Assembly: GCA_017555455.1 (NCBI GenBank)
Contig: JAFZGJ010000195.1
Location: forward strand, 87,284-151,283
Length of the DNA: 64,000 bases
Origin: Lachnospiraceae bacterium
GTDB lineage: Bacteria > Bacillota > Clostridia > Lachnospirales > Lachnospiraceae
Direction of reading: 5' to 3'
Shown here: positions 53,617 to 57,164 of the stretch, in pieces
Position numbering within the stretch: position 1 is the first letter of the stretch
Layout: each line of letters opens with the position of its first letter
Notes under the pieces: generated by a model
The model's database searches: none
What the model was told of the DNA's origin: nothing
The model's input: only the letters and a program-made list of their open reading frames with translations
Position numbers and translations under genes: made by a program

Positions 53617-54174
53617 ATGAGCAATGCGATTAAGCATTTTCGCAAAATTTGCACTCATAAATATTGGGTTGCTAAATATTGTTTTAAAATGGGACTTTAT
53701 TATCAAGGAATTATGCATGATATGTCTAAATTATCTTTAGTGGAGTTCAAAGAAAGTTTAAAATATTATCAAGGCACTTCAAGTCCAATTGATGCTTGCA
53801 AAAAAGAAAAAGGTTTTTCTTTAGCATGGCAACATCATAAAGGTCGAAATCCGCACCATTATGAATATTGGACAGATAATTATGATAAAGGAACAACCGC
53901 TATTAAAATGCCTTTTAAGTATGCTTGCGAAATGCTTGCCGATTATATTGCAGCAGGAAAAGCATATATGGGAGAGGGGTTTAGTTGGACAGCGGAATTA
54001 GAATGGTGGATTAATAAATTAGCAACTAATCCAAAAATGCATCCTGATACAAAAGAATTTATTAATTTTTGTTTAACAAATCTTGCTTCTGGTTCTATTT
54101 CAGAGAAACATTTATTTAATAAACATTTCTTAAAAGGTGTTTATGAAACAACTAAAGGGAAGGAAATTAAATAA
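53617..54174 (+). CDS. hypothetical protein
   Basis: RBS AAGGAGAGG. Confidence 0.5.
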   Translation: MSNAIKHFRKICTHKYWVAKYCFKMGLYYQGIMHDMSKLSLVEFKESLKYYQGTSSPIDACKKEKGFSLAWQHHKGRNPHHYEYWTDNYDKGTTAIKMPFKYACEMLADYIAAGKAYMGEGFSWTAELEWWINKLATNPKMHPDTKEFINFCLTNLASGSISEKHLFNKHFLKGVYETTKGKEIK

Positions 54175-55895
54175 TGAGCAATAAATTATATACTAAAGAT
54201 AGTATTGAATCATTATCTCCATTAGAATTTACTCGTTTGCGCCCAGGGGTATACGCAGGTGATACGACTTATTCTACTCAATTATTAGTAGAAATTTTCT
54301 CTAATGCTGTAGATGAATTTAGACTTGGTCACGGAGATCGAATTGATGTAACTATTAAAAATGATACAGTTATTTTAGAAGACTACGGACAAGGCTTTAT
54401 CCCAAATTCTTTTAGAGATGATGGGAAAACAATTTTAGAAGCCTCTTTTAGTGTATTAAACACCTCTGGTAAATATAGAGAAGATGGCACTTACGAAGGA
54501 ACTTCTTTAGGCTCTTTTGGTATTGGTTCTAAAATTACTACTTATCTTTCTAATTGGTTAGAAGTTATTTCTTGGCGAGATGGCGAATATGAGCATATTT
54601 GGTTTAAAGAAGGTATTTTTGAAAAACGAGATACTGGCAAATGGGATAATATTAATCGCCCAAGTGGTACATTAGTACAATGGAAACCAAGTAAAGAATT
54701 TTTTACAAATCCCGAAGTAGATATTAAATCTATTAAAGATTTATTTAAAACTACCTCTTGCTTATGCCCTGGATTAAGTATTAATTTAGATAATAATGGT
54801 GAAAAAATTACTTACTTATCTAAAAATGGTTTAACTGATTTAGTTAATGAAAATGTAAAAGAAAAAGAATTAATTAATAATCGTTTAGTGGTAAATTTTG
54901 AACAAGAGAAATACAAAATGGACTTAGTTTTAACTTATACTACTAATTATTCTTCTACAATTATTCCTTATGTTAATACCGGTTTAACTGACTCCGGGCC
55001 TCATATCACTCAAATCAAAACGGCTTTAACTCGAGAATTTAATAAATTCTTTAGAGATAAAGGTTGGTTAAAAGAAAAAGATGAAAATTTAACCGGCGAT
55101 GATATTCAAGAAGGATTATATGTAGTATTTAATTTAACTGTACCGGGAGTATCATATGATGCGCAGGTTAAATCTCGTATTACTAAAATTGAAACTAAGC
55201 CATTTATCGCAGCTTTAACTGAAAATTTAAATATCTGGTTTAATGCTAATGAAAAAGAAGTAAAAGGAATTGCAGATAAAGCATTGGCCGCACGTAAAGC
55301 TAGAGAAGCTGCTAAAAAAGCTAGGGAAGCAGTTCGTAATACTACTCAGAAAAAAGAAAAAGCTCTTAAATTTGATAGTAAATTAGCAGATTGTTCATCA
55401 AAAGATAGAAGTAAGTGCGAAATTTATATCACAGAAGGCGATTCTGCTAGTGGAAACTTAAAATTAGCTAGAGATAATAAATATCAAGCAGTAATGCCTG
55501 TACGAGGCAAAATTTTAAATACTCAAAAAGCTAGCCTTGATAAAATTCAAAAAAATGCAGAAATTATGACAATGATTGAAGCTTTTGGTTTAAAAGCAGA
55601 TCCAAAAACAATGAAATTAACTTATGAACCAGAAGATTTACGTTATGATAAAATTATTATTATGTCTGATGCTGACGTAGATGGTGCTCATATTAAAAAT
55701 CTTTTCTATACATTTATTTGGAACTTCTGTCCAGAATTATTTTATGATGGTCATATTTATGCAGGTTTCCCACCTTTGTATAAAATTACAGAGGGAAAAG
55801 ATACTTATGTATATTTAAAAAATGATGAAGAATTAGAGGTATATCGAGCTAATCATAAAGGGAAAAAATATACAGTTGGTCGTATGAAAGGGTAA
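54174..55895 (+). CDS. type II topoisomerase ATPase+Toprim subunit (GyrB-like), exon 1
   Basis: EGDSA and IMSDADVDGAHI toprim motifs, PPLYKI. Confidence 0.65.
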   Translation: MSNKLYTKDSIESLSPLEFTRLRPGVYAGDTTYSTQLLVEIFSNAVDEFRLGHGDRIDVTIKNDTVILEDYGQGFIPNSFRDDGKTILEASFSVLNTSGKYREDGTYEGTSLGSFGIGSKITTYLSNWLEVISWRDGEYEHIWFKEGIFEKRDTGKWDNINRPSGTLVQWKPSKEFFTNPEVDIKSIKDLFKTTSCLCPGLSINLDNNGEKITYLSKNGLTDLVNENVKEKELINNRLVVNFEQEKYKMDLVLTYTTNYSSTIIPYVNTGLTDSGPHITQIKTALTREFNKFFRDKGWLKEKDENLTGDDIQEGLYVVFNLTVPGVSYDAQVKSRITKIETKPFIAALTENLNIWFNANEKEVKGIADKALAARKAREAAKKAREAVRNTTQKKEKALKFDSKLADCSSKDRSKCEIYITEGDSASGNLKLARDNKYQAVMPVRGKILNTQKASLDKIQKNAEIMTMIEAFGLKADPKTMKLTYEPEDLRYDKIIIMSDADVDGAHIKNLFYTFIWNFCPELFYDGHIYAGFPPLYKITEGKDTYVYLKNDEELEVYRANHKGKKYTVGRMKG

Positions 55896-56940
55896 GAGAT
55901 AGTCTGGCCCTTAGCTACTTTACCAGTAATCACTGGGGTTGCGCTTTCCCAATTAATTATCAAAAAAAATGGGGTCGCAGCTAACGAGGAAGTCTTATAA
56001 TAATATTTGGTCATTTCAAGACAAACTGAAATGATTAAAAATAAAATATTATAAGATAATCTCGTGGGAAAATACTACGATATTATCTTCTTAAAATTAA
56101 TTAAGGAGATAAAAAAAATGATAGGTATTTATAAAATTGAAAATAAATTAAATAATCATTGTTATATTGGTCAAAGCGCCAATATCCAAAAACGATGGAC
56201 TCAACATAAAAATCCATATAATTGGGAAAGAGAAATTAGAAAACCTTTATATTTAGCTTTTAAAAAATATGGATTAGAAAATTTTTCTTTTGAAATATTA
56301 GAAGAATGTCTTTTAGAAGAATTAAAAATAAAAGAACGAGAATGGATAAAATATTATAATTCTTATCAAAATGGTTATAATTAGACTTGTGGTGGTGAAG
56401 ATAATTATGGTGAAAACCATCCTGGTCATAAATTAACAGAAGAAGATGTTATTAATATTCGAAATAGATATAATAACCATGAAAGAAAAAAAGATGTTTT
56501 TTTAGATTATAATAATCGTATTGGAGAATCTGGTTTTAGTAAAATATGGAAAGGTGAAACATGGGTTTCTATAATGCCTGAAGTTTATACTGAGGAAAAT
56601 AAAAATTTTCATAAAAATAATACTGGAAATACCGGTTCATCTAATGGTCGTTCAAAACTAACAGAAGAAGATGTTCGAAATATTAGATTAAGAAAAAAAA
56701 ATGGAGAAGAATCTAGTATAGTTTATTAGGATTATAAAAATAAATTAACTAAAGGTTCTTTTCAAAATGTTTGGTCTTATCAAAATTGGAAAAATATTGT
56801 AGTATAACCTGTATCGACTATCCCCTTTGTCGGGGAGTAGGGACATTATTGATAAATGTCTGTGTTTTAGGAAACGAAGCACATGAGAACCGAAAAGGTA
56901 GCATCGTTGAAGGCAGTTAATACGTTAGCCTGAGATAAGA
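55896..56940 (+). mobile_element. intron-like insertion (putative group I intron) in topo II B gene carrying GIY-YIG HEG
   Basis: splits GyrB-like ORF; 3' segment CCTGTATCGACTATC..AGTAGGG shared with 63625 insertion. Confidence 0.45.
56118..56807 (+). CDS. GIY-YIG homing endonuclease with KLTEEDVxNIR NUMOD-like repeats; 2 in-frame TAG
   Basis: IYKIEN..YIGQS..; RBS AAGGAGA. Confidence 0.6.
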
Positions 56941-57164
56941 AATAGTCAGTACCAATGGTAACATTGGACAAATACGTAGGTGAAATGAGTGTCGAAGAAA
57001 CAGAAGAAACTTTAACAAATCCTGAGTCTCGTATTATTAAGCAAATTACTGTGGAAGATATGAAAAAAGTAGACCAATTATTTGAAGATTTAATGGGAAC
57101 TGCAGCAGAACCTCGAAAACAATTTATTCAAGAGCATGCATCGGAGGCTACTTATAATGTCTAA
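56934..57164 (+). CDS. topo II B subunit exon 2 (GyrB C-terminal tail KYVGEM...PESR...LMG..EPRKQFIQE)
   Basis: alignment from memory to GyrB C-terminus RYKGLGEM..PExRR..LMGDxVEPRRxFIEE. Confidence 0.55.

Follow-up and report, generated by a model that had tools for sequence, protein, structure and literature searches.

Group I introns that carry a gene for a GIY-YIG homing endonuclease are a well-known kind of selfish element in phages. In the td intron of phage T4, the open reading frame (ORF) of the endonuclease I-TevI lies in the P6 loop, a stop codon coincides with or closely follows the 5' splice site, and the ribosome-binding site of the endonuclease is located in a hairpin. Split phage genes also have precedents of another sort, the topoisomerase genes 39/60 of T4 and nrdA of Aeromonas phage Aeh1, which have no ribozyme and are made as separate polypeptides. 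In this report, we focused on a 64,000-nucleotide (nt) stretch of contig JAFZGJ010000195.1 (the window) and analyzed its interrupted phage gyrB gene. Our analysis indicates that the interrupting region, 55894-56976, is very probably a mobile group I intron whose P6 loop contains the gene of a GIY-YIG homing endonuclease. A group I intron plus homing endonuclease had been proposed in an initial annotation of this DNA, and the splice junction, the patchy distribution of the insert, its covarying fold and the I-TevI-type enzyme that it encodes bear this out.

Comparison with the described systems highlights both similarities and differences. The element shares with the T4 td intron (subgroup IA2) a host gene of phage nucleotide or DNA metabolism, the helices P7.1/P7.2, an ORF in the P6 loop and a homologous GIY-YIG domain, and it likewise has a stop codon at the 5' splice site and a ribosome-binding site in a hairpin. 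Unlike td, it interrupts gyrB within RMKG/LGEM (here and below, a slash within a coding motif or exon sequence marks the junction), contains TAG sense codons and, in its ribozyme, lacks P2 and has two hairpins separating P3 from P4. The T4 39/60 and Aeh1 nrdA cases also involve a phage topoisomerase or nucleotide metabolism gene broken by a homing endonuclease gene, but in the window the ORF has a conserved group I fold on either side, and the insert splits a codon. The likeness to gene 39/60, a gene split without an intron, that the initial annotation had drawn does not apply. Among the matches listed in the literature, none was a group I intron in gyrB. What makes the element noteworthy is that it belongs to a ribozyme family with helices between P3 and P4 that Rfam misses, that its endonuclease cargo is stop-recoded, and that its relatives are spread across genetic codes.

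The main parts of the locus are the following.

54174..55893, + strand: gyrB exon 1, encoding the ATPase, transducer and Toprim domains; last base U55893
55894..56976, + strand: group I intron, 1,083 nt, IA-like (P7.1, P7.2); borders from intact relatives, fold from 21 homologs
56118..56807, + strand: gene of 229 codons for a GIY-YIG homing endonuclease, containing two in-frame TAGs (56382-56384, 56727-56729); stop TAA 56805-56807
56977..57164, + strand: gyrB exon 2; UA completes the Leu codon U/UA, then GEMSVEETEETL...; stop TAA 57162-57164

The borders of the insert are fixed by alignment of the two exons to intact GyrB, which was the comparison that the initial annotation had called for. 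The ORF 54174-55895, of 573 amino acids (aa), was correctly described there as having the ATPase and Toprim blocks and no C-terminal tail: Pfam identifies DNA_gyraseB (1.3e-32) and Toprim (1.5e-15) in it, and the C-terminal domain is missing. A match to DNA_gyraseB_C is found in the ORF 56955-57164 (1.7e-14, 54.1 bits), covering profile positions 12-63 only. Exon 1 ends in ...HKGKKYTVGRMKG, which aligns with ...HKGSNFTLQRYKG in intact homologs; these continue without interruption through ...HKGSNFTLQRYKGLGEMDAEQLWETT... (QRYKGLGEM or GRMKGLGEM), and the window frame downstream of the insert reads ...(KY)VGEMSVEETEETL. Joining U55893 to U56977 gives GGG-UUA-GGU-GAA-AUG (K-G-L-G-E-M) and restores the RMKGLGEM motif just as the 70 uninterrupted relatives described below have it, with a KGLGEM junction identical to that of the closest uninterrupted relatives (...YQVGRMKGLGEMSVEETEETL...). 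The joined reading frame encodes a GyrB of 635 aa, in which the DNA_gyraseB_C profile is matched over positions 2-63 of 63 (residues 564-625, 66.6 bits), spanning the junction. The 1,083 nt between these exons are preceded by an exon ending in U and themselves end in G. Because the Leu codon is split U/UA by the insert, neither gyrB piece alone encodes the KGLGEM motif. Moreover, U55893 doubles as the first base of a UAA (55893-55895), a stop formed as U/AA across the 5' junction that halts translation in unspliced RNA. The expected ligated exon sequence would be ...AUGAAAGGGU/UAGGUGAAAUG..., with the predicted junction peptide MKGLGEMSVEETEETLTNPESR. Of the tail that had been placed at 56934-57164, the identity stands and the start does not, since exon 2 begins at 56977: the residues KYV before GEM, taken for GyrB, are intron sequence read in frame by chance, and the in-frame TAG noted at 56943 is real (56943-56945) and belongs to the intron, where it falls in the P7 3' strand (AAAUAGUCA). 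The locus is best annotated as one spliced gyrB (join 54174..55893, 56977..57164), in place of a truncated GyrB followed by an orphan tail.

The insert is sporadic among relatives, as expected for a mobile intron. A protein-guided scan of IMG/VR yielded 80 phage loci (designated below by L numbers) with GyrB 69-76% identical, in 70 of which gyrB is contiguous; the other 10 have a homologous insert at exactly the position seen in the window. It is complete in eight loci (1,020-1,038 nt), each time with a homologous endonuclease ORF (61-73% identity), and two further contigs end within it. A copy without an ORF is present at the same gyrB site in L171. This distribution, occupancy of a single site with intron-less alleles available as targets, is accompanied by a difference in the exon flanks. 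Intron-plus alleles read AAAGGGU/UAGG throughout, except for AAGGGAU/UAGG in L018, while the synonymous positions of Gly-Leu-Gly vary freely in alleles without the intron; a fixed flank is expected if these bases have to pair with the intron guide.

The non-coding sequence that the initial annotation had noted on both sides of the endonuclease gene is conserved as a group I fold in 21 homologs. Its elements in window coordinates are given below.

55888..55912, + strand: P1; exon AAGGGU 55888-55893 pairs with the guide GCCCUU 55907-55912, with U55893·G55907 at the splice site
G55896-A55897 with U55903-C55904, + strand: short P1 extension, recovered by RNAalifold
55914..55921, + strand: P3 5' strand, GCUACUUU, one base after P1; partner 56895-56902
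55923..55936, + strand: peripheral hairpin P3.1, CCAGU-AAUC-ACUGG, directly after the P3 5' strand; 3/5 pairs compensatory, 96% of cells paired
55937..55982, + strand: hairpin P3.2, of variable length among homologs; base G·U, G-C, U·G, then UGCG/CGCA
55983-55984, + strand: J3/4, AA; precedes the P4-P5 arm (55983..56065)
55984-55989 with 56060-56065, + strand: P4, ACGAG(G) with (U)CUCGU (ACGAG 55984-88, CUCGU 56061-65); invariant in 21/21
Between P4 and P5, + strand: J4/5 internal loop, AA on the 5' and 3' sides
55992-55996 with 56053-56057, + strand: P5, GUCUU with AAGAU, then a long P5 extension
56066-56068 with 56808-56810, + strand: proposed P6, GGG with CCU; position from topology, both strands invariant
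56811-56813, + strand: J6/7, GUA
56814-56820, + strand: P7 5' strand; U56814, bulged C56815, GACUA 56816-56820
56821-56836, + strand: P7.1, UCCCC-UUUGUC-GGGGA; 4/5 pairs compensatory, 100% paired
56841-56847 with 56855-56861, + strand: P7.2; 7/7 pairs compensatory; loop UAUUGAUAC in relatives, UAUUGAUAA in the window
56862..56891, + strand: optional module of 30 nt, GUGUUUUAGGAAACGAAGCACAUGAGAACC, following P7.2 and preceding the P3 3' strand
56895..56902, + strand: P3 3' strand, AAGGUAGC
56903..56936, + strand: P8; outer AUC/GAU, inner GGC/GCC; 4/5 tested pairs compensatory
56937-56942, + strand: J8/7, AAGAAA; invariant across the family together with the P7 3' strand
56943-56948, + strand: P7 3' strand, UAGUCA; P7 pairs intact in 21/21
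56949-56951 with 56973-56975, + strand: P9.0, GUA with UAC, from RNAalifold; one of its pairs shows AU:12, GC:9; its last base precedes the terminal G
56952-56967, + strand: P9, CCAAUG-GUAA-CAUUGG; 5/6 pairs compensatory, GNRA-type loops
56976, + strand: omega G, the terminal intron base

The statistical support for this fold comes from an alignment of the 21 homologs made after removal of the P5 extension and of the ORF-containing P6 loop. The group I structure that was scored had been derived by eye from the first nine sequences, and RNAalifold was run without it. Standard pairs form in 97.4% of cells, compared with 37-46% when the 3' partners are slid by 1-3 columns, and changes on both sides are seen in 33 of 61 pairs, compared with 6-17 when slid. 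The covariation score is 0.431, against 0.05-0.08 for slid and 0.153 for shuffled alignments, and none of 500 shuffles reaches the observed value. RNAalifold recovers P1, the long-range P3, P3.1, P3.2, P4, P7.1, P7.2, P9 and P9.0. The strands occur in the group I order P3-[P4-P5-P6]-P7-P3'-P8-P7', with the P3/P7 pseudoknot, P6 being the one helix whose position we infer. The copy in the window keeps every invariant core position and pairs all tested helices.

Individual elements are in keeping with this assignment. The U·G pair at the splice site, which goes with the 5'-exon U of group I introns, is kept in 21/21 homologs; compensatory exon/guide changes are found at two other pairs of P1 (GGGAU/GUCCC in L018, GC to AU or CG at column pair 17/35), and GUCU 55903-55906 is able to pair with AGGU of exon 2 as P10. 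In P3, 8/9 scored pairs form in the window and four have changed on both sides (GC/CG/UA/AU at the first pair), in agreement with RNAalifold. P3.2 shows compensatory changes in 4/4 tested outer pairs, to which RNAalifold adds three invariant or nearly invariant basal pairs. The P4-P5 arm folds with -28.3 kcal/mol (z = -7.4), and its sequence resembles the P/Q elements of group I introns. With P6 formed by the proposed strands GGG/CCU, the endonuclease ORF sits in the P6 loop, a position that holds only 37-73 nt in the ORF-less relatives L171, L105 and L094. The extra helices P7.1 and P7.2, which separate P7 from the P3 3' strand and have 11/12 pairs compensatory, place the intron in subgroup IA as far as its sequence can tell. 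The P8 hairpins of the homologs lie at the same place and differ in length. The intron ends in G, the omega G, in 21/21 sequences, among them 8/8 complete gyrB-site relatives and the ORF-less L171 and L105, where this G precedes exon 2, and the bulged P7, the AAGAAA of J8/7, the AA/AA of J4/5 and the covarying P9.0 make a sequence consistent with the predicted guanosine-binding site. A 14-mer, CCUGUAUCGACUAU, covering the region of the P6 3' strand, J6/7 and the P7 5' strand (56808-56820) is invariant across the family. The optional module (..GUUUUAGGAAACGAAGCnnAUGAGAACC..) is present in the window and in L087, L090, L093, L094, L128 and L142, is diverged in L178, and occurs across different host genes.

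This ribozyme has no P2 and instead has two covariation-supported hairpins between the P3 5' strand and J3/4. This layout is uncommon but not unprecedented, as an optional pairing named P3.1 and a noncanonical P3-P4 insertion, in the yeast mitochondrial COX1 intron aI5beta, are on record for group I introns (PMC2396411; PMC3873408). Sequence and host are unrelated, and these recorded elements are at most putative counterparts of the hairpins found here. Two alternative assignments were rejected. CCAGU/ACUGG as P2 and UGCG/CGCA as P4 conflict with the covariation, which puts P3 directly after P1 and P4 at ACGAG/CUCGU. A pairing of GCUAACG 55980-55986 with CGUUAGC 56923-56929, considered for P6/P8, has an invariant first strand and a partner that varies without compensation; about two 7-mer complementarities of this kind are expected by chance.

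The endonuclease gene at 56118-56807, with its two in-frame TAGs, is as the initial annotation had described it, apart from the NUMOD part of that claim. The ORF matches Pfam GIY-YIG (PF01541) with 37.6 bits (cut-off 22.6) and the PHROG 'homing endonuclease' profile with 1.1e-33 over residues 1-228. The first 89 residues can be aligned with residues 4-91 of I-TevI, in the catalytic domain (PDB 1mk0/1ln0, E = 7e-10), with conservation of GIY, YIG, KRW, the acidic ERE and NGYN. Full-length homologs are 61-73% identical, including past both TAGs. The DNA-binding half differs from that of I-TevI, as it has no Pfam NUMOD or I-TevI-type match, and apart from GIY-YIG no Pfam family, NUMOD or other DNA-binding module included, was found at E <= 10. 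This C-terminal half contains two 'KLTEEDVxNIR' repeats. Immediately upstream of the gene is a further structure.

56083..56112, + strand: Shine-Dalgarno hairpin, UUAUCUUCUUAA with UUAAGGAGAUAA, 12 bp; buries AAGGAG 56103-56108

This hairpin has a folding energy of -11 kcal/mol (z = -4.8), none of 200 shuffles is as stable, and homologs share its UUAUCUCC/GGAGAUAA arrangement; it is probably regulatory.

The presence of in-frame TAGs in the endonuclease gene is a further feature of the locus, which we examined in light of the codon usage of the window and of a tRNA encoded in it.

17680..17754, + strand: suppressor tRNA with anticodon CUA (ARAGORN; Rfam tRNA, 53.9 bits)

Compared with the tRNA-Gln(UUG) at 17199-17275, the tRNA(CUA) is no close copy. 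With TAG counted as a sense codon, ORFs of 100 aa or more cover 78% of the window instead of 64%, and this rise, together with the tRNA, argues that the TAGs of the endonuclease are recoding and not decay: the TAGs lie in a conserved full-length ORF, a cognate tRNA is present, and TAG is used as sense genome-wide. What looks like a stop-riddled ORF is thus an intact endonuclease under the phage code. The replication genes at 53617-60755, including gyrB and gyrA, have no TAG, and the difference between the three endonuclease-type ORFs of the window (8 TAGs in 786 codons) and the neighbouring replication genes (0 in 1,997) is significant (Fisher p = 4e-5). Relatives of the endonuclease have 0-12 in-frame TAGs, or TGAs at Trp positions, and never TAA. 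In L042 (5706-6725) and L135, there are six and four in-frame TGAs, respectively, at invariant Trp, and ORF coverage goes up with TGA as sense; for relatives with no in-frame stops in the endonuclease, the short loci gave no clear local code assignment. Essentially the same element thus resides in phages with at least two different stop reassignments.

Several further observations concern recoding. The window encodes 16 tRNAs between 12465 and 21241, and ARAGORN labels the tRNA(CUA) 'Pyl'. Long ORFs that depend on TAG as sense are found at 47795-49498 (567 aa, 7 TAGs), 49530-51866 (778 aa, 9 TAGs) and 51956-52783 (275 aa, 2 TAGs), and the juxtaposition of this TAG-rich region, 47795-52783, with TAG-free replication genes fits the published early/late split of recoded phages. 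The endonuclease at the gyrB site of L181 has 12 TAGs, several of them at otherwise invariant Glu/Asp, which indicates either decay or a different reading of TAG.

The closest parallel for the recoding is found in Agate phages, where a TGA-recoded group I intron endonuclease resides in an early gene and the in-frame stops have been proposed to delay its production until late infection (bioRxiv 10.1101/2021.08.26.457843). In both cases, reassigned stops occur in the endonuclease and not in the early host gene, and late translation is the proposed consequence. The reassigned codon is TGA in Agate, whereas the window has TAG, its own tRNA(CUA) and gyrB as host gene; the two are likened here in their recoding. 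The intron in the window is the TAG counterpart of the Agate case and, with reassigned stops in the intron cargo and none in the early host gene, provides a clean natural case of recoding meeting selfish elements.

Splicing, catalysis, timing and homing, as predicted from the sequence, would proceed as follows. The gyrB pre-mRNA would fold into the ribozyme, with the last six exon bases, AAGGGU, paired to the guide GCCCUU and the U·G wobble at the point of cleavage. P7 would bind a free guanosine, which would attack after U55893; its place would then be taken by G56976, positioned by P9.0 and P9. Exon ligation would generate GGG-UUA-GGU, hence ...RMKG-L-GEM... and the full-length 635-aa GyrB. 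On unspliced RNA, ribosomes would halt at the UAA across the 5' splice site and so be kept out of the ribozyme. The endonuclease would be held back both by the Shine-Dalgarno sequence buried in its hairpin and by the need for tRNA(CUA); as the two TAGs should be readable only with this phage tRNA, translation is probably delayed to the recoded phase of infection. Once made, the endonuclease would cut the intron-less gyrB of co-infecting relatives (a possible target being CGTATGAAAGGACTTGGTGAAATGTCA), and repair would copy the intron in. The enzyme and its gyrB target of ~20 bp are candidates for a new I-TevI-like specificity.

Several points weigh against a group I intron in gyrB and have to be set beside this evidence. 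The Rfam group I model gives no match to the whole region at E <= 1, nothing relevant was found on the 5' piece in Rfam, and the 3' piece yields a 5'-truncated match to RF00028 of 14.9 bits (E = 0.11), for a gathering score of 50. RF00028 also fails at E <= 1 to match the ORF-less members L171, L105 and L094 (at 10224). P4, P6 and P7 are invariant and so beyond a test by covariation, P4 and P7 being 100% paired; the two hairpins between the P3 5' strand and J3/4 are not the textbook layout; and homologs have E, Q or K at the positions aligned to TAG (E > Q ~ K), which leaves the amino acid ambiguous. Failure to detect an intron core had been named in the initial annotation as an outcome that would speak against an intron, and at the Rfam threshold this is formally what the Infernal scan gave. 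The ORF by itself does not cause this failure, since members without one are also undetected. The truncated match aligns 56800-56968 and includes the P8 3' strand, J8/7 (AAGAUAUAGUC), the P7 3' strand and the P9 hairpin, with J8/7 and the P7 3' strand (56937..56948) aligned to the RF00028 consensus gAAGAUAUAGUC. Two unrelated introns of L094 reach 59 and 52.5 bits in the same runs and serve as a positive control. The model contains P2 and P2.1, which are absent from the intron in the window, and lacks P3.1, P3.2, P7.1 and P7.2. We therefore read the Rfam result as a gap in the sensitivity of the model and not as absence of a ribozyme, a point on which the comparative evidence overrides the scan.

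That gyrB is instead a gene in pieces, split by a free-standing endonuclease cassette and translated as separate parts that then assemble, seems very improbable to us. It would account for the stop codon that ends exon 1, for the ATG-started ORF 56955-57164 that covers the tail, and for the absence of an Rfam intron above threshold, and the conserved Met of LGEM could also be a start. However, ~390 nt of non-coding flank that would be useless to such a cassette keep a covarying group I fold, and L171 has a copy of the insert without an ORF at the same site. As for the ATG at 56955, it is part of the P9 stem, lacks a Shine-Dalgarno sequence and is not found in homologs; L042 has a TAA two codons before exon 2, and with the Leu codon split U/UA neither piece encodes KGLGEM. 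We likewise consider it highly unlikely that the element is a decaying group I intron, with ribozyme and endonuclease inactive, inactivating TAGs, and a gyrB that is a pseudogene or a phage that depends on host gyrase. In favor of decay, homing endonuclease genes often degenerate after fixation, the ORF contains two stops if read in the standard code, and L181 has 12 TAGs, of which several fall at otherwise invariant Glu. But decay does not agree with the intact core and helices of the window copy, with the full 229 codons and their 61-73% identity to relatives beyond both TAGs, with interruptions that are TAG only and never TAA or TGA, or with a tRNA(CUA) alongside many long ORFs that need TAG as sense. 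An intein, a group II intron or a translational bypass, as in T4 gene 60, shares with the locus just the general feature of a conserved gene broken at a conserved motif and is excluded by anatomy to the point where we give it hardly any weight: the insert is not an in-frame protein and its flanks have stops in all frames, neither a reverse transcriptase nor a group II domain is present, its 1,083 nt compare with ~50 nt for a bypass, and its fold is that of a group I intron.

The ribozyme of the gyrB intron belongs to a family that extends well beyond this locus. By blastn against GenBank phages, only the endonuclease- and gyrB-coding pieces of the region match, with no significant nucleotide similarity of the ribozyme to phage introns. 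In IMG/VR, the 14-mer occurs in more than 120 stretches, and the P7 3' strand follows it at the right distance in 65 of 128 matches. There are 39 distinct family members with a recognisable P4, located in gyrB/topoisomerase genes and several other genes, with P6 loops of 37-73 nt when ORF-less and 725-1,081 nt when ORF-bearing. A stricter pattern gave 17 matches in the genome collection, only in gut and rumen metagenome bins; because the taxonomy of these bins is mixed, they do not identify the host. A family this common that escapes Rfam implies that intron counts in gut and rumen viromes are probably underestimates and that fragmented genes are likely mis-called. Whether the family constitutes a distinct and abundant IA-like lineage, without P2 and with P3-P4 hairpins, in some members with the optional module after P7.2, invisible to Rfam, inserted in several genes of gut and rumen phages, equipped with interchangeable endonucleases, crossing genetic codes and gated by a tRNA, is in our view an evenly balanced question. 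The same even weight attaches to its suggested breadth, with gyrB, a phrog_6721 gene and a helicase-like gene as hosts, phages with TAG as sense, TGA as Trp and possibly the standard code as carriers, and endonuclease codons that would adapt to each. In L094, an ORF-less member of the family lies in the helicase-like gene near 10,000-10,400, and two other group I introns, at 2225-2460 and 4864-5085, score above the RF00028 threshold.

A second intron of the same ribozyme family is present in the window.

62748-63776: second intron, 1,029 nt, interrupting a phrog_6721 gene of unknown function
62829-41, 63630-43, 63751-60 and 63776: its core, with P4' AAUCCCGUGGGAA (62829-41), P7 (63630-43), P7 3' strand (63751-60), P9 GCC-GAAA-GGC, and omega G 63776

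Exon 1 of the phrog_6721 gene spans 62444-62747 (...ITAPIYW); joined to exon 2, which begins at 63777, it restores W/WKEFDTYKVGT, and a UGA stop is formed across the 5' splice site. The second intron carries a different endonuclease ORF (62911-63620, 235 codons, three in-frame TAGs) that matches the PHROG profiles 'homing endonuclease' and 'intron encoded nuclease'. Directly before this intron-containing gene ends an ORF, 61476-62444, that needs three TAGs as sense and has a C-terminal GIY-YIG domain (CGIYKITC...YIGQS...) identified by eye only; by its sequence, it looks like a free-standing homing endonuclease.

The surroundings of gyrB also vary. In the window, profile searches place gyrA directly downstream of gyrB; its start is probably the ATG at 57157 (MSNEIK...), overlapping the gyrB stop (ATGTCTAA), while the ORF finder listed the first in-frame ATG at 57136. 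In many relatives (L016, L017, L019, L033, L045, L079 and others), gyrA begins 1-2 kilobases (kb) after the end of gyrB and does not directly adjoin it, a spacing suggestive of additional insertions between gyrB and gyrA. In a few loci, GIY-YIG matches are found elsewhere, for example ~2 kb upstream of gyrB or, in L078 and L081, between gyrB and gyrA.

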